From assembly GCA_037308085.1 (NCBI GenBank), contig CP147779.1:1216001-1280000 (forward strand): a DNA stretch of 64,000 nt. Reading direction: 5' to 3'. The position numbers and the translations under genes are program-made. Of this stretch, positions 32,812 through 47,719 are shown in pieces. The DNA comes from Promethearchaeati archaeon SRVP18_Atabeyarchaeia-1. GTDB lineage: Archaea > Asgardarchaeota > Atabeyarchaeia > Atabeyarchaeales > Atabeyarchaeaceae. A model generated the notes under the pieces. The model did no database searches. It was given only the letters and a program-made list of their open reading frames with translations, and was not told the DNA's origin. Positions within the stretch are counted from its first letter, which is position 1. Every line of letters starts with the position of its first letter.

Positions 32812-33158
32812 TGAACGCTAGCATTACATTGGAGGCAATTTATAGCCAAATTCTACAACGATTTCAGACATCACACCATTGAAAATCATACTACCTCAAA
32901 TGATTTAACATTTTTGCTGAAAGTGGACTGCGCGTCACCAGCAAAGCCAGCCAAGAAAGCTCTGCGCCTGGACTAATTCAGAGCCTTCTGATCGATTTAG
33001 GGCTCATCCTACGCATTGGCGCCTGACAGCGCGATTCGAGAGGAGAGGTAACTATTTATCGGGATTGATCGCCTTCGTTCCATCTGGCCCCATATGCTAG
33101 CCCTGGCAGTAGAAGGTCAAAACCATTCTCGGAAAAAGTGTTTCCTGAGGAGATCACA

Positions 33159-34727
33159 GTGGCCAAACTGGCAATAGATAGACTAGACGCACTGTTCAAT
33201 CCAAGAAGTATAGCCCTCATCGGCGCTAGCAATAACCCGCTAAAGTGGGGCTTCATCATCCCCACAAATATCATAACAGGTCAGTACAAGGGAGAGCTCT
33301 TCTTGGTGAATCCAAAGGAGAAGACAATACTCGCCAGGCAATCCTATCCGAACCTTGCTGCCATACCCAGAGACATAGACCTAGCCATCATAGCGACTCC
33401 CTCCGGCACCGTACCGTCAGTAATGGAAGAGTGCATTGAGAAGCGCATCAAGGCTTCCATAGTCATAACAGCGGGCTATAGCGAGACGGGCGAAGAAGGA
33501 GCTAAACTGGAGAGAGAAGTGGTCAATATTGCCACGCGAGGCGGAATTACCGTTGTGGGACCAAACACCATGGGAGTCTACAGTGCTTCTACGAGTCTCT
33601 ACGCGCTGATGCCCCCTGTCAGACCAAAACCAGGTGCCGTTGCCTTGGTCTCCCAGAGTGGTAACCTGGGAACCCAGTTACTCGACATGGGCGAACCTGC
33701 CGGCATAGGCTTCACGAAGTTCGTAAGCTCAGGTAACGAGGCTCAGACCACCACAGAGGACTATCTCGAGTACTTCGGCAGAGACCCAGAGACAAAGGTC
33801 ATACTCGCTTACATAGAGGGTCTCAAAGGCATCGAGGGTGGAAGAAGATTCATGGAAGTCGCGCGAGAGATCACCAAGAGGAAGCCAATAATAGTCTACA
33901 AAGCCGGTCGTTCACAATCCGGCGCCAGAGCAGCAAAATCACACTCAGGCGCGATTGCGGGCTCAGAACAGATATATGAGGCAGCTTTCAAGCAGCTTGG
34001 AGTAATTCAAGCCTCGACCATAGGGCAACTACTTGACCTAGCACGGGGCTTCGAAGGATCGCCGCTCCCTCGGGGCAGACGCGTTCTAATTGAGACATGG
34101 GGTGGCGGTTACGGCGTTGTTACTGCAGACGCATGCGAAGAGGATGGACTGGAGGTAGCCAAGCTTTCACCGAACCTGGTGGCAGAGTTGGACAAGATCC
34201 TGCCGCCTTACTGGAGCAAGGGGAACCCTGTCGATCTCGTCGGCACGCTCAACAGGGATGCACACCTAAAATGCTTGGAGCTACTCGCCAAGAGCAGTGA
34301 CGGCGACGCGACTATTGCGCTAGGCGTGATTGCTGGCGCGTCACGATTTGTCGAACTCATCCTGCAGTCGGGCAGTTTGCCGGATATCAAAGGCGGAGAG
34401 GAATTTGCCCAGATGTTCAAGAAAGGTGACGAAGACTCGGTGAATGAGATATCAAAACTCGTAGCGAAGTATGGAAAACCTATAGTAGCGGTCACCCTAA
34501 CTTCAGGCGGCGGAGGGATAACAGAGGAACTAAAGCAATGGAAAAACATACTCGTTTACCCGACACCTGAAAAAGCAACCAAGGTCCTATCGAAACTATA
34601 TGAGTACCAAAGATACCTTGACACGGAAACTCAGAGAAAAGGCAAAAACGCAAAGTCTAGAGGACATGCAAGGCTGAGTCCATCAGAAGCAAGCAGAAGA
34701 AAACCAAGCCAGAACCAGGAAATCTAA
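33159..34727 (+). CDS. acdA: ADP-forming acyl-CoA synthetase alpha subunit
   Basis: LFNPRSIALIGAS, ITAGYSE, GPNTMG, SQSG, SSGNEA, phospho-His loop AAKSHSGA, NPVDL. Confidence 0.88.
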   Translation: MAKLAIDRLDALFNPRSIALIGASNNPLKWGFIIPTNIITGQYKGELFLVNPKEKTILARQSYPNLAAIPRDIDLAIIATPSGTVPSVMEECIEKRIKASIVITAGYSETGEEGAKLEREVVNIATRGGITVVGPNTMGVYSASTSLYALMPPVRPKPGAVALVSQSGNLGTQLLDMGEPAGIGFTKFVSSGNEAQTTTEDYLEYFGRDPETKVILAYIEGLKGIEGGRRFMEVAREITKRKPIIVYKAGRSQSGARAAKSHSGAIAGSEQIYEAAFKQLGVIQASTIGQLLDLARGFEGSPLPRGRRVLIETWGGGYGVVTADACEEDGLEVAKLSPNLVAELDKILPPYWSKGNPVDLVGTLNRDAHLKCLELLAKSSDGDATIALGVIAGASRFVELILQSGSLPDIKGGEEFAQMFKKGDEDSVNEISKLVAKYGKPIVAVTLTSGGGGITEELKQWKNILVYPTPEKATKVLSKLYEYQRYLDTETQRKGKNAKSRGHARLSPSEASRRKPSQNQEI

Positions 34728-34787
34728 AGATTTAAGTATCCATAGAATGCTTAGCAAGAAACGAATCATCAGGCGGTGGAGTAAGCA

Positions 34788-35192
34788 TTGCCAAAACCCC
34801 TCAGTAGAGAGGAAGCGAAGAAACCCAAGAACGCCCCGACAGCTCCAACGGGAAGAGGAGCCACGCTATTCCACTACGGCGTCGCGTTTTCTCTCATAGC
34901 ATCCCTACTGATTATCGCTGAAGGCATCAAGATCATCATCTACTCGCCTCTGGCCTACCACATCCCGCTTCTTGCGGATTTCGGAGGGTACCTCAACCTC
35001 CTTTTCGGCATCATCGCGCTAATCGGGTTCATCGGCGTAACCTTGGCGAGCGGGCATAAGAAGGTCAAGAACATCAGCGCAGCCATGATTGGCCTCTTCT
35101 CCATCTTGAGCTTAATATTCTTCGGAGGAGGATTCTACCTAGGATTCATACTCGGTGTATTCGGTGCGCTCCTTACGGCGGCGCGGGAATGA
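34788..35192 (+). CDS. Small membrane protein (about 4 TM)
   Basis: Hydrophobic segments ending GGGFYLGFILGVFGALL; RBS GGTGGAG. Confidence 0.7.
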   Translation: MPKPLSREEAKKPKNAPTAPTGRGATLFHYGVAFSLIASLLIIAEGIKIIIYSPLAYHIPLLADFGGYLNLLFGIIALIGFIGVTLASGHKKVKNISAAMIGLFSILSLIFFGGGFYLGFILGVFGALLTAARE

Positions 35193-35355
35193 GCAAGTAG
35201 TATGATGAGGCTGGGCAGAAGCGCATACACCATCCTTATTTAAGATTCCAGCCAACGTTTACAGTCCTGTTTTGGAACAACCGCACTGCAAGGTCATGAT
35301 ATATATGCAACGCATTGTTTAGGATTATGCCACGTTAGAAGAGGAGTGATGTCTA

Positions 35356-35742
35356 ATGTCTCAAATCATCGTAGACGGCGGCGATCTTGCAAAGTCTAAG
35401 GGCGACTCGATGGCAAGATTAGCCGAGTTCTTGAACGGCATTCGTTCGCTCAAGGTACAGGCCAAAGTAGGTGGAAAGGGAATAACAATAACGCCGAAAG
35501 AGGCAACGGCAAAAGCCCCAACCAGGAAAGGATCGAAAAAGAAAGGCAAAAAGGCCTCTGGGGCGGAGACGGCGACCGCGGTCATCTCGAAGACTAAACT
35601 GAAAGTATACCTGAAGAGATTCATCAACAAGGAGGGGCTTAGTGACGGGATGAGGGTCATCTCCAGTGGACCTGACGGCTTCACTTTCCATGAGAAACCG
35701 ATACTCGGAGAACAACTCGCGCCTTTGGAGGGAGAAGAGTGA
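35356..35742 (+). CDS. rpl22e: Eukaryote-type ribosomal protein eL22 homologue
   Basis: ISKTKLKVYLKRFINKEGLSDGMRVIS resembles eL22 [26 protein letters not shown]; N-terminal IVD...L.EFL; acidic tail; strong RBS GAGGAGTGA. Confidence 0.7.
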   Translation: MSQIIVDGGDLAKSKGDSMARLAEFLNGIRSLKVQAKVGGKGITITPKEATAKAPTRKGSKKKGKKASGAETATAVISKTKLKVYLKRFINKEGLSDGMRVISSGPDGFTFHEKPILGEQLAPLEGEE

Positions 35743-35828
35743 AAACCTGCTCTGGCATAAAGGGCGGGTTCCTCAATCCTCCTTTTCTGATTCTCAGTCA
35801 GACAAGTTGAAAGCTTATTAGAGTTCTG

Positions 35829-37058
35829 TTACCTCTGCGGCTGATAACCGTTTAGGTCAACTTCTCCGCTTTGGCTCATAGCCTTGTTGAAGGGACTAAT
35901 CACTGCTACACGTGCGGAGCGATCCAGGGTGAACCGCACCCTTTCATCTTGGGCTTTAAGCATGTTCAGACAAGCATTTACATGTCGATCTATTCCGCAG
36001 CATTCTAGGGTTTTCGCTTTCGGGTCTCGCATGATACACCCACACACCGCGCATACCCTAGAAGTGTTCCAAGGACTCACTTTGACGGCTTTGACTCCTT
36101 CCCAGAGAGCCTTGTACTCGATGAAGCCTTGTAGCCTGTGGAAGCTCCACGAGTTCAGCCTCCGCTTCAGCCTCTTGGAGCGCACGCTGATCATCTGGAC
36201 CTTCCCGTTGAAACTGTTGACGCCTAGTGCTTTCCTGTTGATTGCCCTGCGGATGTGTCTAAGGTCTTCGAGAATAATGCCTTGCCCTCTGTTCTTCGCT
36301 TGCCTAACTATTGCTGAACTCACCTGATGCAGCATCGTGTTGACTTTGTTGTTCTGGTTAGCGAACCATCTTCTCTGGATCTTCGTCGCCACCCGCCTAT
36401 CCTTAGCGTACTTGGATTGAGCTCTCCGCACCCGCTCAAAGTACCCTTGCCTAGCCTCTGAAACTCCTGACAAGTCGTGGCTTTCAACAGCCAGTTCTCC
36501 GCCTTCTCTTACGTAGGCTCCATCTATTGAGCGTTCATTCGTGTCGTACGCCACGTAGCTCCCTGGTTCGGTAATCTCAGCGGTCTTCGAGAAAACCACT
36601 GAAACCGTGGAAGCAGTCAAGGTCACTGAGCCTAACTTGAGCGCGGCGTCTGATAGGAACTGTGCCGCCCTCTTGTGGAGGGGGACGTAGAAGTACTCTC
36701 TGGGCTTGATCGGTATTCTCAGCTTGCCGTCAACGACCTTGTAGGCTTGGTTTCCCAGTTTAGCCGTGAGCTTCGTAGCTCTCGGCACTCGAGCGTTCTG
36801 GCGCCTTCTCCTCTTCGCTTTCCGGTAGTTCTTCAGGATGGCGGTGGCAGCCTCTGTGGCTGAGAGGCTGTACCAGGTGTGGAGACCGAAACCACTTAGC
36901 TGGTGGTAGACCTCGCTTTGCAGGCTGAACCTCGAGGTCACATTCTTCTCCAGGCCGACGCGGATGCAGCAGTTAACCATGGTTCTGAAGGTTTCTAGTA
37001 GGCTGAGAACACGACTTGTAGGCTCGTACGGTATCTGCACCGCTTTAATTGCCTGCAT
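35829..37058 (-). CDS. tnpB: TnpB family RNA-guided nuclease (RuvC-III Asp replaced by His)
   Basis: RuvC-I YVAYDTNE, RuvC-II IILEDL, W.F..LQGFIEYKA, NTSRVCAVCG, DRHVNA. ATG 37058 lies 24 nt below TTTAAATA. Confidence 0.9.
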   Translation of the reverse strand: MQAIKAVQIPYEPTSRVLSLLETFRTMVNCCIRVGLEKNVTSRFSLQSEVYHQLSGFGLHTWYSLSATEAATAILKNYRKAKRRRRQNARVPRATKLTAKLGNQAYKVVDGKLRIPIKPREYFYVPLHKRAAQFLSDAALKLGSVTLTASTVSVVFSKTAEITEPGSYVAYDTNERSIDGAYVREGGELAVESHDLSGVSEARQGYFERVRRAQSKYAKDRRVATKIQRRWFANQNNKVNTMLHQVSSAIVRQAKNRGQGIILEDLRHIRRAINRKALGVNSFNGKVQMISVRSKRLKRRLNSWSFHRLQGFIEYKALWEGVKAVKVSPWNTSRVCAVCGCIMRDPKAKTLECCGIDRHVNACLNMLKAQDERVRFTLDRSARVAVISPFNKAMSQSGEVDLNGYQPQR

Positions 37059-37081
37059 AAAACCAAATAAGCCAAAAATCT

Positions 37082-37089
37082 TATTTAAA
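37082..37089 (-). promoter_or_regulatory. TATA box of tnpB (leaderless transcript), inside element E1
   Basis: TTTAAATA on the minus strand, 24 nt upstream of ATG 37058 and just inside the TIR. Confidence 0.65.
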
Positions 37090-37237
37090 CTCACCAACCG
37101 CAGAGGTAACAGATCCCTTATTAGGTAGGATTGTAAGATCACAGCATGCTCCTAGATACGCGCGACGCATCTAGGCTTGCTAGAGGAGCCGTGTCGGGGA
37201 AGCGCACTCTGATGGCTACTCGGAAGAGGCGATTCAC

Positions 37238-38032
37238 TTGCCAAAGGTAAAATGCAATGACATAAACATCTGTTATGAGGTTCAAGGTAAGGGGTATCCG
37301 CTTGTAATGATAATGGGGCTATCCGCCAACATGGACTGGTGGGATCCAAAGCTAATCGAGGAAACCTCGAGGAAATACAAGATAGCCATCTTCGATAATC
37401 GTGGCGCCGGGCGCACCGACGCACCCAAGATTGACTATTCCATCAAGATGTTCGCCGACGACACAGCAAAACTAATGGACAACCTGAAGATACAGAAAGC
37501 ACACGTACTCGGCATCTCAATGGGGGGAATGATAGCACAGGAATTCGCTCTTACCTATCCACAGAGAGTTGAGAAGCTCGTCCTCTGCTCAACTAGCTGC
37601 GGAGGGATCAAATCAGTGCCTCCAGCACCCAAAATAATGAGCGTCTTAAGTGGCGGTGGAGCAAGGACACCAGAGGACCTGGTAAAGAATACTATCCCAG
37701 TCCTCTTCACTGAAGACTTCATTAAAGGCAATCCTGCCTTCATAAAAGTGGTAACTGAGCGACTTATGAAGGCGCCAATTGCGCTCGACGCGTATATGCG
37801 ACAAGTAAAAGCGATTATGGCGTGGGACACGTACGCTCGGCTTCCGAAGATCAAAGCGCCCGCGTTAGTGATGCACGGTAAGAAAGATATTCTTGTTCCT
37901 CCAGAGAACGCTAAGATCCTAGCTGATAGAATACCAGGGGCAAAGCTTGCATACTTCGATAATAGCGCACATGCACTTTTCTCGCAGGAAACTGACAAGG
38001 TGATCAGCACTCTGCTTCAATTTCTTGCATGA
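37238..38032 (+). CDS. Alpha/beta hydrolase (enol-lactone hydrolase-like)
   Basis: FDNRGAG, GISMGG nucleophile elbow, HGKKD, SAH. Confidence 0.9.
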   Translation: MPKVKCNDINICYEVQGKGYPLVMIMGLSANMDWWDPKLIEETSRKYKIAIFDNRGAGRTDAPKIDYSIKMFADDTAKLMDNLKIQKAHVLGISMGGMIAQEFALTYPQRVEKLVLCSTSCGGIKSVPPAPKIMSVLSGGGARTPEDLVKNTIPVLFTEDFIKGNPAFIKVVTERLMKAPIALDAYMRQVKAIMAWDTYARLPKIKAPALVMHGKKDILVPPENAKILADRIPGAKLAYFDNSAHALFSQETDKVISTLLQFLA

Positions 38033-38036
38033 CTAC

Positions 38037-39002
38037 CGCTCTGTTAACTCTTCGGGTGACAGTTGGTGCCGTTAGCTTCTCGGCCGTATGGTGGCCTTAT
38101 TAGTCGAAGTACCCCCTTTTTCGGGCAAGCAGGCGGTCAAAGCCGTCAAGCAGAGCTACACGCCACCAACCGAACTACTCAGCCTCCTAGACGAGTTCAG
38201 AAAGATGGTGAACGACTGCATACAAATCGGTCTGGCTGAGAATGTTACGTCGATGAAGGCGCTCTCAAAGAAAGCATACCGTGAACTCGCACGATACGAC
38301 GCGCCAACCTACTACCGTCTGACTGCGATTAGTAAAGCTACCGGGATCCTTCGGAATTATGGGCACGCGCTGAGGAAGCTGCAGAGGGTGAAGAAGCCCT
38401 ATGCAACAAGGCTCATGCTCACTGACTGCTACGGCTTCAAGATAATTAATGGCGAACTCAGACTGCCCATCAGGGCAAGAGAGTACATCCATGTTCCGCT
38501 GAACGCCTACACGTTGCAGTCTATTGAGGGTTCGACTGTCCGTTCAGTCTGCTTGAGCGCCTCCGCCCTGTCATTAGCTTTCTCGAAGGAGGTTACTCAG
38601 GCTGAGCCTGCGGGTCTAATCGGGGTAGACCGCAACCTCGACAACGTAACCGCTGCATCCTCAAACGAAGGTGTGAGGAGGTATAACCTGTCAAGGGCAA
38701 CCGATATCAAGGAGAACTGCAGGCAGGCCAAGCGGGGTTTCAAGCGAGGCGATTGCCGAGTCATGAAGCAGCTCTACTCCAAATATGGGCGAATCCAGAG
38801 GAACAAGGTAAACTGGATACTGCACAACACCTCAGCAAGCATAGTGGAGCAGGCGAAGGAGAAACAGTTCGGCATAGTCATGGAGGACATCAAGGGCATC
38901 CGAAAACTCTACAGGAAGGGAAACTGGCAGGGCAAGGACTACAGGGCGAGGATGGAGCAGATGCCACCCAGCTAACTCTTCAACCGAAGAGTTAACAGAA
39001 CC
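38037..39002 (+). mobile_element. Second TIR-bounded TnpB element, internally deleted (E2)
   Basis: TIRs at 38037-38055 (CGCTCTGTTAACTCTTCGG) and 38984-39002 (rc GGTTCTGTTAACTCTTCGG), 17/19; flanks CATGACTAC / CACGAGTAC (7/9, degenerate). Confidence 0.8.
38088..38975 (+). pseudogene. tnpB: 3'-truncated tnpB
   Basis: LLDEFRKMVNDCI, RuvC-I IGVDRNLDN and RuvC-II IVMEDI are present. The ORF ends YRARMEQMPPS without the Zn finger or RuvC-III. Confidence 0.85.
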
Positions 39003-39246
39003 CACGAGTACTCTCCTTTTTCTTTTGATCTGAAGCAGACGAATCCATCGTCGAACTCAAGTTCACATGTTTTGATGGCGGTATTACGCTGATCGTCTCA
39101 GTAGACGATCCAGAACATACTAGCCTTGGAAAGGGATAAAAGTGCCGCGAACTCATTGATGTGTTAAGCATGGTAGGAGATGTCTTCGGCAAAGTATCAC
39201 GTGGGGGCGGTCACTGAAGTCCACGGAGTAAGAAGAGGTAGTCGAC

Positions 39247-39747
39247 ATGACAAAAGAAGTTAAGGTACTCATTACGGGTCCCTATCGAGTAGGAAAGTCA
39301 ACCCTAGTCAGATCGATGACTAGTGGAAGGGCCATTAACATAGATCGACGCGGCACAACGGTATGCATGGACTACGGCTACATCGACCTCGACGGGATCA
39401 GACTTCACCTCTTCGGAACACCGGGACAAGAAAGATTTGCCATCATACGGGAAGTACTCTCCACGGGCATGAGAATATTGGTCATGGTAATAGACTCGAC
39501 GAAACCAGACTCCATCGCGCAGGCAAAGAAGATCTTCGGTCAGCTAGCAATGAAAGATGTTCCGTGCATAATAGCCGCCAACAAGCAGGATTGCCCAGGC
39601 GCAATGACCCCCGCAGAAGTCCAGAGAACGATAAACCTTCGAATCCCGACTGTGGGCACTTCGGCAGTCTCAAGAGGCGGTGCACAACAGTTACTCGCAG
39701 AGATGTACAAAGCCGCTCTGAAAGTCCCAGCTTCACTTATGTCCTAG
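39247..39747 (+). CDS. Small GTPase (MglA/Ras-like)
   Basis: G1 GPYRVGKS, G2 GTTV.MDYG, G3 FGTPGQERF, G4 NKQD, G5 TSA. Confidence 0.9.
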   Translation: MTKEVKVLITGPYRVGKSTLVRSMTSGRAINIDRRGTTVCMDYGYIDLDGIRLHLFGTPGQERFAIIREVLSTGMRILVMVIDSTKPDSIAQAKKIFGQLAMKDVPCIIAANKQDCPGAMTPAEVQRTINLRIPTVGTSAVSRGGAQQLLAEMYKAALKVPASLMS

Positions 39748-39831
39748 GGAGCCGACAAGGAGCGCTTCCTATCTCTTTCTTCTGGAGCAGTGGCAAGCGG
39801 GAATCGCAACCAGAGGATTTGATTGCCACGG

Positions 39832-40578
39832 TCATTCCGTCTTCAGGCGTATTCCCGTGCTGGCAATCTCATACTCGACGGGTTTGAGACTGTGCGTGGT
39901 TCCACGCATTTTCAGGATCTCAATATAGCGCTTTCTTTCCTCAGTGCCTTCACTCATGGTTCTCAGAGATATCACGCCATCTGTAAGGAACGAGTCAAAC
40001 CCGAGTGGAACCCTGTGTTCAAGGCCCTGCACATTCTCTGATGTTAGGAGCGCCGTGACAAGGGCAGCGCCCAGAGTCCTGATGATCGTGGTGATGTCGT
40101 ACCGCGTCTCGAACGGGTCCTTCCTACTCTGCGCAAAAGGAGTTACAGAGTCTATAACTACCCTCTTAGCATTGATCTCCATGATGTTCTTGTTTATCAC
40201 AGAGATTAGTTCCCCAACGTGAAATCCCTTCGCACCTAGCGCAGTCTCGTCTCCAGGGATAGCATAAGTCATCTCGCGATCAACAACAACCCTAACTGGG
40301 CTCACGTCGAGAACACGCAGCGAACCCTCAGCATCACACTTCGCCAGGTCGAATCCAAGCTCCTTCGCATTCTCAAAGAGTATCTCCTTGGGCTCCTCCA
40401 TAAGAGTGACGAGAACACCATTCTCCTTATGGTTGACTATCCCATCCAGCAAGAACTGCAGACCAAAGGTCGTCTTACCAGACCCAGGATCCCCCGACAC
40501 CAGAATAGATCTACCCTTCGGATAGCCGCCATCAATTAGCTCATCAAGTCCCGGTACACCTGTTGAAACCCGCTCCAA
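39832..40578 (-). CDS. KaiC/RAD55-like RecA-superfamily ATPase
   Basis: STGVPGLDEL.GG, Walker A GDPGSGKT, Walker B VVIDS, DGVI, ILKMRGT.H. Confidence 0.9.
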   Translation of the reverse strand: MERVSTGVPGLDELIDGGYPKGRSILVSGDPGSGKTTFGLQFLLDGIVNHKENGVLVTLMEEPKEILFENAKELGFDLAKCDAEGSLRVLDVSPVRVVVDREMTYAIPGDETALGAKGFHVGELISVINKNIMEINAKRVVIDSVTPFAQSRKDPFETRYDITTIIRTLGAALVTALLTSENVQGLEHRVPLGFDSFLTDGVISLRTMSEGTEERKRYIEILKMRGTTHSLKPVEYEIASTGIRLKTE

Positions 40579-40918
40579 CTAGACGCAACCCCCACAACCG
40601 ACGATAGAAGCGACGAAAAGATCGTTGCAGACATTAACACTAGGTAATTCATTAGTGACACCGATTATTTATGGGTTTCCTAAATCGGGATCGGGATCAT
40701 TTCCTTCTTCTTAATCCAAAATGTGCAACGCCTACTGAAAACCAGCTGCCACTGTACGTGGTAATTGCAGACTCATGCGGCCAATAACGGAATACGAATA
40801 AAGGATCAGAACCCGCAAACATGGAGGCCCGTTTCTAATTCAAGCTCGGACGACAGGAAATTGGGGAAAAAAAAGGAGGGGATTAGACTTTTCTTAGCGG
40901 AATTGCGCAGCAATCAGC

Positions 40919-42499
40919 CTACTTTATACTGACAGCCTTGGAACCAGACCTTTTTCGCATGAACATCAGACCAGCAACAACAATGATGGCACCCAGTGCA
41001 CTGACAATCAACAGCATCGTTGGTAGGCCGGATGGACTAGTTAGAGGCGACAACTCCACAGTGTAGGTATACGCTGGGTCGTCACACACATATAGCACGC
41101 CAGTCGCGGACCAGTATTGTGTCGCGTTCACTGGTGTCCTTGTCCCACTATCGACTTTCCAAACGGCCTTGACAGTGTACCCATCAGGAACTGCAAGTTT
41201 GAAGTACACCCAGTCTCCGAGAGATACCTTCGACAAGGTAACGTTGCGGATGCCGCCAGTGCCAGTCACTGCACCCGTGTGATCCACGAGTTGATCGGGC
41301 TCGCCAGTTCCATTGGTCGCAAAGTCAGGGACCCCATCCCAGCCATAGTCGACGAAGAACATTGTGCTACCGCCAAAGTGAGTGCTACCCTGTGCGCCAC
41401 CCCCGGTGACATCAATCTGATGGGCATAGCTGCCGTAGTAGACTATAACACCGACCTTCTTCCACACAATCGTTGCGTTCTCAGGAACCTGTATTTCATA
41501 CGTGTTCAATGACCATTGTCCACCACTGTCCGCAGTCTTGACTTCCCAGTTACTTGTAACCGCGAGTCCAAGGTAAAGTCCAAGCTCAGCAAAGACGTTG
41601 ATATCATACTGAATGTTGACATACATATGAAGCGCATCGCTGTAGCCACTGATGCCCCCATGCCCAACTACTGCAAAGTCGACTACCAGGTCAATGAATC
41701 CTCCCGCCATCAGGAGGATGTTGTCAGGCGAGGTTCCACTTGTCTTCCATACGTCAATTTTGCCAACACATTTCACAACATTGAAACCGCCTTGGATTCC
41801 AGGTATGTTAAGATCCTGGAGTGCTGTGGATACCTTACTCCATACCGAATTGAGTGCGCCTTGTATTCTGTTTCGTAGCCAAGCGCTGAAATCCCACTGA
41901 ACATGGTTTACAACGTAGTTTGTTCCTGTCCATGTGTCATTTGCGTCTGTGAACTTAATCGTCAGAGGATTGGCGCTACCAGTATGAGTGACAGGGTCTA
42001 CGCTCTCAATTGCTGGGAACGGAATACTGAAGTTCTTCGTGGTTCCTGTCGGAATAAGCCATTTGGCGTCCCAACTTGTGCTAGAATTCCACTTATTGTA
42101 GAACACATTCGCTGTGCCATTCACGTCAATGTTTACGTCGATCACCAGCATCGCATTGACAGCAATGGTTGCCGTGACAATTCCTGTTGACGTGCTAACG
42201 TTTATGTCATGGGCCGCAACTGATATCTTGGCACCTATGTACAGCTTGTTGACGTTGATGCTGTAGGAATGGAAACCAGCAATGTTTGTAGTGATGATAA
42301 CGTGTCCTGACGCGTTGATCCAGGCCATGAGAGTCCCGTTTACGTCATACAAGAGTGATCCAGGGATGGTCATAGCCATTTGCCGTTGAGGTGCCGCCTC
42401 ATTCTGCTGTGTCGAAGTTGCTGTCGCTGGAGATGCGAACGCTGCTGTTGTCGCTAGAATTGCGATGAAGAGTGCTGCGAAGATAGCTTTACCATTCAA
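40919..42499 (-). CDS. Secreted, C-terminally membrane-anchored cell-surface glycoprotein
   Basis: TTG 42499 after GGGGAGAT; signal peptide; many N-x-S/T sequons; beta-rich body; C-terminal TM helix plus RKRSGSK. Confidence 0.75.
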   Translation of the reverse strand: MNGKAIFAALFIAILATTAAFASPATATSTQQNEAAPQRQMAMTIPGSLLYDVNGTLMAWINASGHVIITTNIAGFHSYSINVNKLYIGAKISVAAHDINVSTSTGIVTATIAVNAMLVIDVNIDVNGTANVFYNKWNSSTSWDAKWLIPTGTTKNFSIPFPAIESVDPVTHTGSANPLTIKFTDANDTWTGTNYVVNHVQWDFSAWLRNRIQGALNSVWSKVSTALQDLNIPGIQGGFNVVKCVGKIDVWKTSGTSPDNILLMAGGFIDLVVDFAVVGHGGISGYSDALHMYVNIQYDINVFAELGLYLGLAVTSNWEVKTADSGGQWSLNTYEIQVPENATIVWKKVGVIVYYGSYAHQIDVTGGGAQGSTHFGGSTMFFVDYGWDGVPDFATNGTGEPDQLVDHTGAVTGTGGIRNVTLSKVSLGDWVYFKLAVPDGYTVKAVWKVDSGTRTPVNATQYWSATGVLYVCDDPAYTYTVELSPLTSPSGLPTMLLIVSALGAIIVVAGLMFMRKRSGSKAVSIK

Positions 42500-42600
42500 A
42501 TGCTTTATCTCCCCACATTTCCATTTTGTTTCGCGTTGATCCCACTGTATGCCCACCGTCGCTTAAAAATGTTGAGGACGTAATCGGTGTATGAAGAATG

Positions 42601-42676
42601 TATATAAATGTATATTTTTAGAATAATGGCTATTTTGTGTGGCAAAGACTGCTGTAAAATATATATAAATGTATAT
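42601..42676. promoter_or_regulatory. 15-bp direct repeat TATATAAATGTATAT (two copies, 61 bp apart), candidate operator pair
   Basis: Exact copies at 42601-42615 and 42662-42676 in an AT-rich divergent promoter region; quasi-palindromic. Confidence 0.55.
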
Positions 42677-43026
42677 CTGATATGACTTGGGAATGTTAGA
42701 TCCCTAATGGAAAAGCTGTCTGAGAGTGGGGAGTGAGGTGGAGAACTTGGGTAATTTCCTGCCCGTAGAAGGACATCTCAGCCCCAAGCCCCAAGATGAT
42801 GCAGACCAACGGTAGGCTGGACGTAGAAGCTGCGGAACGTCGAAGCCGATAAGATATTTAACGTGAAGGCGAATGATGTACATCTCTCATGAAGACGCAC
42901 CTAACATCAGGCATCACACACCTGAGTATCCAGAGAGAATGCATTGCGTCACAAGTTGGCAGAGTTGCACACGAATTTCCTGAAAAGAGTTATTGGGTCA
43001 GAAATTCCCGATGAGATGCTCAGCGT

Positions 43027-43635
43027 ATGGAGAAGAGCTATAGTCCGCGCGAGGCTGCAGCCATACTTGGCGTTGCAGTGCACACCATTCAAGTATGGGA
43101 CAGACAGGGCAAGATACGCTGCGTCAGGCTACCTTCTGGCCGGAGGCGTGTTCCCGAGAGCGAGGTTAGACGCCTCCTGAACGTAAAGGAGGAGAGGAAA
43201 GACGCAATATATGCGAGGGTTTTCTCCAGCAACCAGAAGGGAGAACTCGAGAGGCAGGTAAGCTTACTGAAAGAATTGGCGCCCAGCGCGGTAGTGTACA
43301 CCGATGTTAGATCTGGCTTGAATTTCAAGAGGAAAGGATTATTCCAGCTTCTAGAGGATCTCGTCGACAGGAAGATCGCCAGACTCTTCATTGCGCACGA
43401 AGACAGGCTTGCAAGGATCGGATATGAGCTCATATCATGGTTGTGCGAGAAATACGGCACAGAGATAATCGTCGCAGAGAAGGAGGTAAATCCTTCTCTC
43501 CGACAAGAGTATGGCAAGGATATGATTGCACTCAACATGGCATTTTCGGCGAAGCTTTTCGGGTTGAGGAGTCATAATACAGCTAGGATTCTTCGAGCTG
43601 TAAAGGACGCCATAGCCGAAACGAGGTCTTCTTGA
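43027..43635 (+). CDS. tnpA: IS607-family serine recombinase (TnpA) with catalytic Ser replaced by Phe; no adjacent tnpB
   Basis: N-terminal MerR-like HTH, AIYARVFSSNQK.ELERQ (canonical YARVSS..Q), SGLNFKRKG, HEDRLARIG, FSAKLFG.RSH. Confidence 0.85.
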   Translation: MEKSYSPREAAAILGVAVHTIQVWDRQGKIRCVRLPSGRRRVPESEVRRLLNVKEERKDAIYARVFSSNQKGELERQVSLLKELAPSAVVYTDVRSGLNFKRKGLFQLLEDLVDRKIARLFIAHEDRLARIGYELISWLCEKYGTEIIVAEKEVNPSLRQEYGKDMIALNMAFSAKLFGLRSHNTARILRAVKDAIAETRSS

Positions 43636-43703
43636 ATCGGAGATGAAGGTGCGATTCGCCAAGCCAGGATTATTCATAATGTGGGAGGGGGAATGCTAGA
43701 TAT

Positions 43704-44387
43704 ATGAGAATTTTCGCATCACGCAAGGTTAGGATGGAGGCTATCGAAGATTCTGGCGTGGCAACGTCGTTTGACCGTATAACCGGCATGCCTCAGTTTG
43801 GGCTTCTCCTGCGGCTATTTACCTTGAAGGCGCTCAGCAGTCAGAGTGGCGGTAGAGTCATTGACATCGGTTGCGGCGGAGGGCGACTTGTCCTCAGGCT
43901 TGCGAAAAGTTATCCCTTTGAAGAAGTCATCGGTCTGGACCTGTCTGACAAGATGCTGAGGCTAGCTAGAAGGAGGGCGATAGATGCAGGTCTCGGTGAT
44001 CGAGTCAAGTTCAAGGAGGGGAACGCGGAAATGATCCCATACCCCAGCGGATCGTTTGATCTGGTTGTGAGCACTCTGTCCTTGCATCACTGGTCGAGAC
44101 CAGAGCTTGTCTTCGATGAGATTGCGCGGGTTCTTAGGCCTGCGGGAAAGTGTGTGTTGGGAGACATGCGCAGAGATCCCATGCCCGTATTCACGGGGCT
44201 TATGTGGGTTGTAACGCATTTCATAGTTCCACGCTCTCTGAGGCGCGCAGGAGAGCCTCTTGGGTCTCTGCAGTCAGCATACACGAAGGAGGAGACCTCT
44301 GCCTTTTTGCAGAAGTCCAAACTCGGAGCCTTCAGCAAGGTCACAACGGGACCATTCTGGCTAATCATCAAAGGAAGAAAAATGTGA
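43704..44387 (+). CDS. Class I SAM-dependent methyltransferase
   Basis: VIDIGCGGG, GLDLS..M, FDLVVS...HH, RVLRP.G. Confidence 0.9.
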   Translation: MRIFASRKVRMEAIEDSGVATSFDRITGMPQFGLLLRLFTLKALSSQSGGRVIDIGCGGGRLVLRLAKSYPFEEVIGLDLSDKMLRLARRRAIDAGLGDRVKFKEGNAEMIPYPSGSFDLVVSTLSLHHWSRPELVFDEIARVLRPAGKCVLGDMRRDPMPVFTGLMWVVTHFIVPRSLRRAGEPLGSLQSAYTKEETSAFLQKSKLGAFSKVTTGPFWLIIKGRKM

Positions 44388-44432
44388 TGCGCGTAGCAGA
44401 ACAGGCGGGTTGAAGTAGATACTCTATCTCAA

Positions 44433-44701
44433 GGTTCTGTCAAGTCTTCGGTTGATGACTCGACTGACTCGCATCGACTTTCAGGATTACCTTTCCTTCC
44501 GTTCCGAGGGTTCCTGTACCATCGCTTCACCTGCGAGTCCCTTCAGGCCGAACCACAGCCCTGCACCTGCTTCCACGTCTACACAGGTTCTCTCTTTCCC
44601 CTCCGCCTTCAGCTATAAAGCCACATACCGCGGAGCGAGAAGACTCTTAGACTCACTACCCCGTTCCCAACATATAAATCAACCATAGACTTTGCAGAGC
44701 C
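44433..44701 (-). mobile_element. 269-bp MITE-like derivative of the TnpB elements carrying only a promoter and an omegaRNA-like scaffold (E3)
   Basis: TIRs GGTTCTGTCAAGTCTTCGGTTGAT and rc GGCTCTGCAAAGTCTATGGTTGAT (19/24); flanks TATCTCAA (44425-44432) and TATTTCAA (44702-44709); TTTATATG at 44671-44678; interior aligns with the 3' end of E1. Confidence 0.8.
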
Positions 44702-44844
44702 TATTTCAACAAAGAATTTATATAGAAGTATGATTCGCCTTCTAGGAAGGATGAATATTACCATAAGGTAACAAATAGCGTTGTCTCCACTGCTTAGAGA
44801 CAGCGTTGAACTGACTCTATTTAGGGACTCGGCATAATCTGAAC

Positions 44845-45651
44845 TTGTCACTAAAGTCAACTCTAAACCAGCAAGTTGTCTTGCCCTTAACGATGGGACA
44901 TGTCATGTCGGAGGCGTTGACGGGTTTGGCGTCTCACAAGGATCAGCGTAGCACTTCAGGCAAGGAAAAGACCAAGATGCTAGGCGAGGCATCTGAGGAG
45001 ACAAACACGCCGGAAGCCAGTGAAGCGCCAAGAGAGGAACAGAGCGCAACACCGACGACGCCGATCGCAGATCCCATGGAAAACGAACTAGAATTATTGC
45101 GGAAATCACTTCAGGAGGAAAAGGATAGAGCGGAACAATACCTTGTTTCGCTCAAGTACCTGAAAGCTGAATTCGAGAACTATCAGAAGAGATCCGCAAA
45201 GGAAATGGATGAACTCGCCAAGAGGGGAAGCGAGAGGCTTGCCCGAAAGCTGCTCGGAATCGTGGATGACATCGAGAGAACAATTAATGCATGCAAGGCT
45301 GTAGGCGACCAGAGCAAGCTGCTCGCTGGCGTCGAGATGATCCTAAAAGAACTCGTCAATACCCTCAGAAGCGAGGGAATATTCAAGATAGAGGCAGTCG
45401 GCAAGAGGTTTGATCCTCAACTTCACGAAGCTATCATGGTGAAGAAGACAGACGAATGTCCTCCTGGCACTGTGGTTGAGGAGTTGAGAGCCGGCTACAT
45501 GTTTGATGGCAGAGTCATTAGGCCAAGCATGGTAACGGTGGCAAATCCGCCTGACCGGCAAGGCAGTCCTGAGCCAGAAAACAAGGTGAAAGGTGGGGGA
45601 GGGCAGAGGACAAGCAGTGGTGTTGACAAACGACCCCTCCACGAAACATAG
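44845..45651 (+). CDS. grpE: Nucleotide exchange factor GrpE (true start probably 44926 or 44977)
   Basis: AEFENYQKR, LL.IVDDIER, FDPQLHEA, GY....RVIRPSMV.V. Confidence 0.93.
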   Translation: MSLKSTLNQQVVLPLTMGHVMSEALTGLASHKDQRSTSGKEKTKMLGEASEETNTPEASEAPREEQSATPTTPIADPMENELELLRKSLQEEKDRAEQYLVSLKYLKAEFENYQKRSAKEMDELAKRGSERLARKLLGIVDDIERTINACKAVGDQSKLLAGVEMILKELVNTLRSEGIFKIEAVGKRFDPQLHEAIMVKKTDECPPGTVVEELRAGYMFDGRVIRPSMVTVANPPDRQGSPEPENKVKGGGGQRTSSGVDKRPLHET

Positions 45652-45727
45652 AAGCATCAGCTGATGCCGGATACCTGCAATACAATAATGAATATCACGT
45701 AACAACTGTATCGGTTCATGGAAAGAG

Positions 45728-47719
45728 GTGAATAGACTGATGCCTTCCTCAAAAAGCGAGGCCTCTGAATGGCAGAAGCAAGAGGCGGGAAAGAAAGAGA
45801 AAGTCCTTGGAATAGATTTGGGGACAAGCAACTCAGCAGTAGCAGTCGTGATGGCCGGAAGACCAGTTGTTATCCCGGCCTCTGAGGGCGTGTCCGTTAC
45901 AGGCAAAGCTTTTCCTTCGTTCGTTGCATTCACAAAGGACGGTCAGCTACTTGTCGGAGAACCGGCGAGACGGCAAGCTGTTAGCAACCCTGAGGGAACA
46001 ATCTTAGAAGTTAAACGGAAAATGGGAACCAACGAGAAGATCAAGGTCTTCGGAAAGGAGTATACACCACAGCAGATATCAGCATTCATCCTGCAGAAAA
46101 TGAAGAAAGACGCTGAGACATTTACAGGTGAGAAGTTCGAGAAAGCCGTAATCACAGTTCCTGCCCATTACAACGACAACCAAAGGCAGGCAACCAAGGA
46201 TGCTGCCGAAATAGCTGGGCTCAAGACAATAAGGCTCATCAACGAACCTACCGCCTCAGCGCTGGCATACGGCGTGGACAAAGCTGGAAAAGAACTGAAG
46301 ATCCTCGTGTTCGAACTTGGCGGCGGAACATACGACGTCACAATCATGGAGTTCGGAAAAAATGTCTTTGAGGTAAAAGCAACCAATGGTGACACTCACC
46401 TCGGTGGAACAGATATGGACAAGAGAGTCACAGACTATATTGCCGACATGTTCAGGAAAGATACGGGCATCGATCTGAGAAATGACAAAATGGCCGCGTA
46501 CCGCTTGAAGGAAGCGTGTGAAAAGGCGAAGATAGAACTTTCCACAACCTTGGAGACAGAGATCAACTTGCCGTACATAACGGCTGACGCCACCGGTCCC
46601 AAGCACCTGAACTATAAGATGACGAGGGCCAAACTCGAGGAACTAGTGTCTCCGATACTGGAGAAATGCAAGGAGCCCCTTAGGCTGGCACTGGCCGACG
46701 CTAAGATGACTCCGCAGGACATTGACAAGATTATTCTCGTGGGAGGTCCAACCAGGATGCCCCTAGTAAACAGGTTCGTTGAGCAGATGCTAGGGAAGAG
46801 ACCTGAGAGGGGCGTTGACCCTATGGAGTGTGTGTGCATAGGTGCCGCAATACAGGGTGCAGCTCTGGCTGGAGAGATAAGCGACATACTACTCTTGGAC
46901 GTTACCCCACTATCGCTGGGAGTCGAGACTCTCGGAGGGGTTATGACGAGAGTCATGGATAGGAATACGACAATTCCTGCCAGAAGAAGCCAGATATTCA
47001 CTACGGCAGCAGACTTCCAGACCGCCGTAACCATACATGTGCTCCAAGGGGAGCGTACGATGGCATCGGACAACATATCGCTTGGAGTGTTCAACCTCAC
47101 TGGAATACCGCCCGCACCAAGAGGGACTCCTCAGGTTGAAGTCTCGTTCGACATAGATGCCAGTGGTATCCTTCACGTCACTGCAAAGGACATGGCCACG
47201 GGCAACAAACAGGAGATAGCCATAACCGCCTCCACGAAGCTGAGTCAAGAACAGAAAGACCGCATGAACAGAGAGGCTGAAACCTACGCGGAACAGGACA
47301 AGCAGAAGCGAGACGAGATCGAAACTCGAAACAACGCGGACTCCATGATCTACCAAGCTGAGAAAATGCTTCGCGACCTGGGCGAGAAGGTCTCCAAGGA
47401 CAACAAAGACAAGATAGAGAAGGCCATCAAGGAACTTAGAGGGGCGCTTGATGGAAAGGACATCTCGGGCGTCAAGGCGAAAATGGGGGAGCTATCCAAT
47501 GTGCTCCAGGAAGCTGGCGCAGCAATGTATCAGCAAGCGGGACAGCAGCAGGGACAACAGCAGCAGGGACAACGACAGCAAGAGGGACAACAGCAACAGC
47601 AGCAGGACCAACAAAGATATCCAGGCGATCAGAACAAGGGACAGAACAAGAGCTCACCAAAGGGCGGAGAAGACGTGGTCGACGCAGAATTCAAGGAAGT
47701 AAATGATGAGGACAAGTAG
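45728..47719 (+). CDS. dnaK: Chaperone DnaK (Hsp70)
   Basis: [56 protein letters not shown]. Confidence 0.97.
47531..47612 (+). repeat. Gln-rich degenerate tandem repeat (GGACAACAGCAGCAG-like units) in the dnaK tail
   Basis: Encodes [27 protein letters not shown]. Confidence 0.75.

Follow-up and report, generated by a model that had tools for sequence, protein, structure and literature searches.

The window analysed here, a 64,000-nucleotide stretch of contig CP147779.1 from the Asgard-lineage archaeon SRVP18_Atabeyarchaeia-1, carries two TnpB elements, E1 and E2, and a third, far shorter element, E3, between a methyltransferase gene and grpE. These elements, and the ends of E3, lie as follows:

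35822–37116, minus strand: E1, a family-A TnpB element with a terminal inverted repeat (TIR), a TATA box and a perfect 8-bp duplication, CTAATAAG
38037–39002, plus strand: E2, a truncated family-B TnpB element identified by tblastn and TIR analysis, with a covariance-model match at 38847–39002
44433–44701, minus strand: E3, the whole MITE, 269 bp, with boundaries common to seven copies
44702–44709, minus strand: left copy of the target-site duplication (TSD), TTGAAATA, directly outside the left TIR
44687–44701, minus strand: left TIR, GGCTCTGCAAAGTCT, the reverse complement of the right end
44433–44447, minus strand: right TIR, AGACTTGACAGAACC, pairing with the left TIR as a 15-bp terminal inverted repeat
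44425–44432, minus strand: right copy of the duplication, TTGAGATA, matching the left copy at 7/8 positions

Searches with blastn and an nhmmer profile recovered six further full-length E3 copies in the genome, at positions 2198749, 673143, 2205592, 868840, 537694 and 1526452, and similarity ends exactly at 44701 and 44433. Identity across the seven copies is 72–90%; as not even the closest pair exceeds about 90%, the family has not been active recently. The TIR consensus of the family is GGTTCTGTCAAGTCT, and the 8-bp duplication is perfect in copies M2205 and M868 and degenerate in several others. E3 is absent from the orthologous methyltransferase–grpE spacer of a genome of the same genus (G001), which gives absence rather than an exact pre-insertion sequence, and the orthologous spacer is ~281 bp shorter in a family-level relative (G002), whose spacer is too diverged for a base-exact empty site. 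Together with the TIR and the 8-bp duplication, these two spacers identify E3 as a true insertion. A blastn search of G001 and G002 found no E3-type 5' half in either genome. E3 encodes no protein: its residual reading frame is stopped, and indels vary among the copies. All seven copies are intergenic and beside genes, with different gene neighbours at each. E3 is thus short, non-coding, repeated, TIR-bounded and flanked by a target-site duplication, as a MITE should be. The original prediction had described it as a protein-less MITE with a promoter-like box, and both this description and the motif coordinates given for E3 and E1 agree with our re-reading of the sequence.

The ends of E3 resemble those of IS6-type elements. 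Their tips read GGnnCTG (GGTTCTGT...) and are accompanied by 8-bp duplications; the inverted repeat of IS257, for comparison, is GGTTCTGTTGCAAAGTT (PMC4856351). Two DDE_Tnp_IS240 genes are present in the genome, both with IS6 as the best NCBIfam model (116 and 121 bits, full model coverage); as these scores fall 4–9 bits below the equivalog cut-off of 125, we use the wording IS6-like. Inverted repeats starting with GG, 8-bp duplications and a DDE_Tnp_IS240 transposase are all in place, and we infer from these sequences that E3 was mobilised by an IS6-like enzyme. We also considered an IS200/IS605-derived PATE and rejected it: such elements insert immediately 3' of a tetra- or pentanucleotide target, whereas E3 has TIRs and 8-bp duplications, and the duplication stands between it and its T-rich motif. 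Y1 TnpA genes occur in the genome; E3-type ends do not fit IS200/IS605.

IS6-like genes are found at several related ends. One of the two DDE_Tnp_IS240 genes, which may be split into ORFs of 259 aa and, upstream, 109 aa, lies in a 4.4-kb element at genome 614149–618567; this element is marked by the family-A TIR GGTTCTGTTACCTCTGCGGTTGATC, an additional subterminal repeat and an 8-bp duplication. The other encodes an intact 387-aa SWIM-finger IS6-like DDE (549896–551059); a B-type end lies beside it, as does a TIR-bounded mini-element of 451 bp, the whole spanning genome 549276–551059. In G002, a 399-aa IS6-like DDE gene (853–2074) is followed, 22 nt past its stop, by ...ATACTTGACAGAACC, an E3-type end (...ACTTGACAGAACC), for which no matching left end was found. 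An autonomous IS6-like element with the E3 TIR variant, GTCAAGTCT, was not found in the SRVP18_Atabeyarchaeia-1 genome.

From which element did E3 derive? The TnpB identity of E1 (35829–37142) is supported by Pfam PF07282 and NCBIfam, and the protein has about a dozen relatives in the genome. Family B, whose protein is ~36% identical to that of E1, comprises elements at genome 1697571–1698831, 1808115–1809377 and about 899438–900700, with E2 as its truncated member in the window. Positions 50–264 of E3 align (nhmmer) with the last ~260 nt of the three family-B elements, and its guide-RNA scaffold is 73–80% identical to theirs. A covariance model of the scaffold, described below, scores the end of E1 (35822–35950) at 33.4 bits versus 139–145 bits for family-B 3' ends. 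The original prediction had paralleled the 3' half of E3 with the end of E1: a distant likeness does exist, at 33 bits, but the close kin is family B, which replaces E1 as parent and as likely protein partner. In family B, the ORF ends at a TAA within the right TIR, and the sequence encoding the C-terminal tail of the protein (...GAGLRFGLKGVAGEAVKGNPE...) therefore overlaps with the scaffold. The residual frame of E3, GLWFGLKGLAGEAMVQEP, had been said to resemble a TnpB tail, and it is indeed a remnant of the family-B tail GAGLRFGLKGVAGEAVKGNPE, cut short by an early stop codon.

The first ~110 nt of E3, in turn, are a left end, with a TIR, a TATA-like box and a hairpin region common to family-B left ends. 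Between this left end and the scaffold lies the least conserved part of the element:

44596–44641, minus strand: 5' hairpin region (CUCCGC...GGCU-UUAU-AGCU...GCGGAG), homologous to the family-B left end
44573–44595, minus strand: deletion junction or spacer, 27–44% identity among copies, with indels

Three pairs of the 5' hairpin region show compensatory changes among the MITE copies. Because a left end of ~110 nt stands joined to a family-B-type 3' scaffold, E3 is, by its sequence, an internal-deletion derivative of a family-B-type TnpB element in which the promoter region has been joined to the guide-RNA region. A full-length TnpB element combining the E3 TIR type with a B-type scaffold was not found in this genome; the TIR variant GTCAAGTCT is present on one family-A element and on Nitrososphaeria and Thermoproteota elements. 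Other internal-deletion derivatives that keep the scaffold occur as single copies: 763237–763617 (381 bp), 2751691–2752055 (365 bp), 2135115–2135847 (733 bp) and E2 (966 bp). Among the short TnpB derivatives, only the E3 type, with its promoter box fused to the scaffold, reached seven copies.

The promoter box had been predicted to follow the left TIR in the same layout as in E1, and this holds:

44671–44678, minus strand: TATA-like box TTTATATG, a candidate promoter, 8 nt after the left TIR

The block that contains it, GGTTGATTTATAT, is kept in 7/7 copies at 83% identity, versus 51–61% in adjoining sequence, and TTTATAT is present in all seven. The box is equally spaced from the TIR in E1 (TTTAAATA) and in Nitrososphaeria and Thermoproteota relatives (TATATTA). 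A second TATA-like motif, GGCTTTATAGC, homologous in position to the family-B tnpB promoter, was set aside: it is a loop sequence within a conserved hairpin, and two or three of the three subfamily-2 copies have it disrupted, in contrast to TTTATAT, which no copy has lost.

We next describe the right-hand part of E3, in which the candidate guide RNA resides. Its features are:

44433–44572, minus strand: omegaRNA scaffold, 140 nt, matching covariance model R1 at 162.5 bits
44545–44561, minus strand: hairpin 1, GGGCUG-UGGUU-CGGCCU, a covarying stem
44465–44540, minus strand: long-range stem enclosing two inner stems, with its core at 44532–44538 paired with 44467–44473 (ACUCGCA/UGCGAGU)
44439–44464, minus strand: terminal hairpin, GUCGAGUC-loop-GACUUGAC, with the right TIR as its 3' arm

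RNAalifold on 11 sequences returned hairpin 1, the long-range stem, the two inner stems and the terminal hairpin, and this alignment served to build R1. Every family-A and family-B element, E1 included, has an R1 match at its 3' end, and further matches fall on elements of G001 and G002 and on TnpB elements of Bathyarchaeia, Nitrososphaeria and other archaea; an Rfam search (E up to 1) of positions 33000–47000 gave no match. In E1, the counterparts are the hairpin AGGGTG-CGGTT-CACCCT and the stem CTCCGC/GCGGAG at 35919–35914 and 35869–35864. The proposal that hairpin and long-range stem are preserved between E3 and E1 despite sequence change proved sound, as both pairings are real and covary. 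Hairpin-1 stems include GGCUUG/CAAGCC, UGGGUG/CGCCCA, GCGCUG/CAGCGC and others, around a loop GGUU(C) that is nearly invariant across most; one pair of the long-range stem appears as CG, UA, GC and AU among the MITE copies alone; and the 5' arm of the terminal hairpin tracks the TIR type (UUAACUC/GAGUUAA, UUACCUC/GAGGUAA, UCGAGUC/GACUUGA).

Covariation across copies, scored with a covariance model, was one of the checks that the original prediction had set for itself, and covariation was found. Over 30 sequences and 31 pairs, 91.8% of cells are paired versus 29–42% when the pairing is slid; 17 pairs are double-changed, and 0/500 shuffles reach the score. For the seven MITE copies alone, aligned with MAFFT without fitting to the structure, 99.1% (215/217 cells) are paired versus 24–41% when slid, with five double-changed pairs and again 0/500 shuffles; this set also holds 13 one-sided changes, all of which are wobble pairs on the minus-strand RNA. 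The minimum free energy structure of the single sequence is the same fold, but its energy is unexceptional (z = -1.47). Folding the whole element merely pairs the two TIRs, and we disregarded it as irrelevant if transcription begins past the TATA box.

Conservation varies along the element. Between the two MITE subfamilies, identity is 77% in the scaffold, 94% in the right TIR, 70% in the left TIR, 51% at positions 32–60 and 27% at the junction; among copies, it is 77–82% in the scaffold, 27–44% at the junction and 70–75% in the left TIR. The scaffold is homologous to sequence overlapping the tnpB 3' end, finishes at the transposon right end and has a covarying fold, as omegaRNAs do. Because pairing and scaffold conservation persist in seven protein-less copies, the fold has been maintained by selection after the loss of coding. 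This maintained fold is the strongest argument that the RNA is used.

The same conservation could be a matter of shared descent, with E3 an inert relic that moved a few times by way of its retained TIRs and carried the omegaRNA as a passenger, untranscribed or unused. The lack of copies closer than about 90%, the several degenerate duplications and the absence from the genome of a cognate full-length parent or matching autonomous element are in keeping with a relic, as are the weak expression support (see below) and the other one-off deletion derivatives (at 763 kb, 2751 kb and about 2135 kb, the last being the 733-bp A2135k, together with E2). A passenger, however, would hardly be expected to keep 215 of 217 cells paired in copies down to 72% identity, with five double-changed and 13 wobble-compatible single-changed pairs, nor to hold its scaffold at 77–82% beside a junction at 27–44%; and of the short derivatives, it was only the fusion of promoter box and scaffold that multiplied to seven. 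We regard an inert relic as unlikely, though serious enough to be kept in view.

Alternatively, the 140-nt block might act as DNA, by enlarging the part of the right end at which the transposase binds or the transpososome assembles. Such a role would suit the terminal hairpin, whose 3' arm is the TIR and whose 5' arm covaries with the TIR type, as does the left TIR. IS6-type transposases, however, are known to need only the terminal inverted repeats, and the covarying long-range stem and hairpin 1 lie 70–130 nt inside the end. Moreover, G-U is tolerated on one strand only, as the 13 one-sided changes on the minus-strand RNA attest, and the left end has no matching block. A purely DNA-level role is, in our judgement, highly improbable.

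The right TIR, at 94%, is far better conserved than the left, at 70–75%, as would suit an end that serves both the transposase, as its site, and the RNA, as its 3' hairpin. A further side observation concerns the loop of hairpin 1: GGUU(C), at 44551–44555, is complementary to a nearly invariant GAACC at 44433–44437, just before the guide, while the stem that presents the loop covaries freely across archaeal phyla. Known TnpB and Cas12f guide RNAs contain pseudoknots, and one between the hairpin-1 loop and the terminal GAACC is plausible here; both partners are too invariant for covariation to bear on it.

Expression data consist of unstranded metatranscriptome contigs. In a wetland RNA library, one 264-nt contig is 100% identical to 44299–44561, at a depth of about 3. 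Hairpin 1, the remainder of the scaffold up to the right end and 134 nt of flank are all within it; on the other side it stops short of the start predicted near 44647, and it continues beyond the first T-run. A second RNA-library contig, at copy M673 (genome 673004–673174), likewise extends from the right end into 139 nt of flank, where no ORF of at least 100 aa is found and two ORFs under 100 aa overlap. Runs X8, X9 and X5 gave no contig on 43000–46500, and uncovered parts carry no weight. The contig at 44299–44561 could also stem from DNA carry-over, or belong to the convergent methyltransferase gene (43704–44387, plus strand) as its 3' UTR. Together, these contigs are a weak hint of E3 transcription.

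Which nuclease might use such an RNA? The three family-B TnpB genes, one of them at genome 1697661–1698824, encode proteins of 386–388 aa with the motifs GIDRN, MEDI, DRDENAALN and CxxC...CxxC. These proteins pass NCBIfam's guided_TnpB model, and they have matches among the solved structures of TnpB and Cas12f. The RuvC triad (D, E, D) and the zinc finger are thus intact in three genes of the same genome, and family-B TnpB is probably compatible with an E3 scaffold that is 73–80% identical to its own. The family-A TnpBs of E1 and of genome 655232–656523 read (D/N)RHVNACLN where family B has DRDENAALN; as DRH replaces DRD, a His stands in place of the RuvC-III Asp in these two proteins.

If the E3 RNA is bound by a TnpB and directs cleavage in trans, as its scaffold suggests, its guide should lie outside the element, and the matching TAM on the other side of it:

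44413–44432, minus strand: predicted guide UUGAGAUAGAGUAUCUACUU, directly 3' of the scaffold and outside the element
44710–44714, minus strand: TAM-like motif CTTTG, directly 5' of the left duplication

The right flank starts TTGAGATAGAGTATCTAC and begins with the target-site duplication. A genome search with the 16-nt cores of the seven MITE guides, allowing up to three mismatches, returned only the self sites, and the E3 core at fewer than two mismatches finds itself alone. This lack of a second target fits homing or retention rather than regulation.

The RNA might nevertheless be made for a purpose other than homing, as a TnpB decoy or competitor, as a guide for the RuvC-III-altered family-A TnpB in TldR-like repression, or through its promoter as antisense read-through into the methyltransferase gene. 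The DRH of the family-A TnpBs at RuvC-III would suit a guide of the TldR kind, the RNA contig, whose 134 nt beyond E3 enter the convergent methyltransferase gene at its 3' end, would suit read-through, and all copies are intergenic and beside genes. Against these readings, no guide has a second near-perfect genomic target, the scaffold scores 140–165 bits for the family-B type versus 30–40 bits for the family-A type, and the gene neighbours differ at every copy. We consider a non-homing RNA quite improbable.

The position of the TAM-like motif recurs across insertions. We compiled 27 TnpB-family insertions in three genomes, 19 of them with a clear 8-bp duplication. YTTR stands directly 5' of the left duplication in 17/19 of these and at the mirror position in 0/19. 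Among the seven MITE copies, it is exact in four and apparently offset by one base in two more; in relatives from other phyla, TTTG, CTTG and GTTA are found there. E1 is an exception, with CCTAC at 37125–37129; the E2 motif lies upstream of 38037. If the guide starts with the duplication, this is the position where a TAM must lie, and YTTR is a putative TAM for TnpB. YTTR might instead reflect which targets the transposase prefers; the motif is strictly asymmetric relative to the orientation of the guide RNA, however, and for this reason we favour a link with TnpB. Two small TIR pairs, at 1383691–1383862 and 549276–549726, were uninformative as omegaRNA-less TAM controls.

The reading that we favour, and hold to be probable if only moderately so, is that E3 is a family-B-derived MITE, moved by an IS6-like transposase, that gives a guide RNA in trans to family-B TnpB. 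Internal deletion of a family-B-type element would have fused ~110 nt of left end to the last ~140 nt of scaffold, and an IS6-like DDE transposase from elsewhere in the genome would have moved the product. The TATA box would drive a minus-strand RNA from near 44650 through the scaffold into the right flank, and family-B TnpB, encoded by three copies with intact RuvC triad and zinc finger, would bind the scaffold in trans. With the right duplication copy and its flank (UUGAGAUAGAGUAUCUAC) as guide, the complex would cut the empty allele, in which CTTTG (YTTR) lies directly 5' of the guide-matching sequence, and repair from a filled chromosome copy would re-install or spread the MITE. As both enzymes are supplied from elsewhere in this scheme, E3 would borrow a transposase as well as an RNA-guided nuclease.

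An extension of this scheme, tentative and somewhat unlikely, is that YTTR is a footprint of TnpB-dependent fixation: only those IS6-type insertions, the MITE's among them, that land with a TAM 5' of the duplicated bases would become fixed in a multi-copy archaeal chromosome, by RNA-guided cutting of the empty copies. If true, the protein-less MITE would parasitise a DDE transposase and an RNA-guided nuclease at once, and the spectrum of insertion sites would be direct genomic evidence for stand-alone omegaRNAs working in trans in Asgard archaea.

Much of this has precedent. Stand-alone, mobilised trans omegaRNAs and omegaRNA-encoding PATEs of IS200/IS605 elements have been published (PMC10691335; Meers et al. 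2023, PMC10055086), the former including the stand-alone omegaRNAs of Altae-Tran 2021 as summarised in PMC10691335, and both papers already contain the notion of a mobile guide-RNA cassette; a Haloquadratum PATE, HqIRS71, that keeps a tnpB 3' remnant was described in 2011 (PMC3119063). Like these, E3 is a protein-less miniature with a right-end scaffold, a tnpB 3' remnant and a guide set by the insertion site, and like the stand-alone omegaRNAs it would need TnpB in trans. Unlike IS200/IS605 PATEs, which have subterminal palindromes and no duplication, E3 has long TIRs, 8-bp duplications and an archaeal TATA box fused to the scaffold; and whereas the TAM abuts IS200/IS605 elements, the E3 guide would start with the duplication, leaving the TAM 8 bp from the element.

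TnpB branches associated with DDE transposases and inverted terminal repeats are also known (DDE-1 to DDE-6; Altae-Tran et al. 2023, PMC10691335), and share with the elements described here the TIR-bounded architecture, a tnpB 3' end at the transposon end and solo TnpBs inside transposase-type ends. The main text of that paper names only IS630, for DDE-6, and there has no IS6; the ends and linked DDE genes here, by contrast, are IS6-like, and E3 has no TnpB. With IS6/IS26/IS257, E3 shares the GGnnCTG tips and 8-bp duplications, and a full-coverage DDE_Tnp_IS240 transposase is present in the genome; unlike them, it has no transposase of its own, and the genomic DDEs, at 116–121 bits, score under the 125-bit cut-off. 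The E3 scaffold resembles the reRNA/omegaRNA of ISDra2 TnpB (Karvelis 2021, PMC8612924) in its length of ~130–140 nt, its tnpB 3' overlap, its flank-derived guide and a T-rich 5' TAM; it differs in that no sequence similarity was detected and the final E3 hairpin is built from the TIR. Our literature search found no paper linking IS6 with TnpB guide RNAs, and a paper on Atabeyarchaeia mobile elements makes no mention of TnpB or MITEs.

The architecture of E3 is therefore no new principle: stand-alone omegaRNAs and DDE-linked TnpBs are already known, and E3 combines a protein-less guide module with IS6-like TIR/TSD ends. It shows that, on an IS6-like TIR/TSD transposon of an Asgard-lineage archaeon, a guide module that has parted from its nuclease can still survive and increase in number; most records of such modules so far come from IS200/IS605-type elements of bacteria and halophiles. 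The family also makes up a natural test set, with seven diverged copies, three intact candidate nucleases and a YTTR TAM predicted at a constant distance of 8 bp, for asking whether stand-alone omegaRNAs act in trans and how transposons that duplicate their target can be squared with homing by TnpB.

More broadly, TIR/TSD transposons with TnpB relatives (Fanzors) are typical of eukaryotes, and an Asgard and archaeal clade with TIR/TSD TnpB architecture is for that reason of evolutionary interest. In a Bathyarchaeia genome, two omegaRNA-only matches turned out to be 5'-truncated right-end remnants rather than two-ended MITEs. TnpB relatives 33–60% identical to family B are found in Bathyarchaeia, Nitrososphaeria and Thermoproteota MAGs with the same GGTTCTGT... 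TIRs (seven loci), several of them with 8-bp duplications and a T-rich motif 5' of these, so that the TIR/TnpB architecture spans archaeal phyla.
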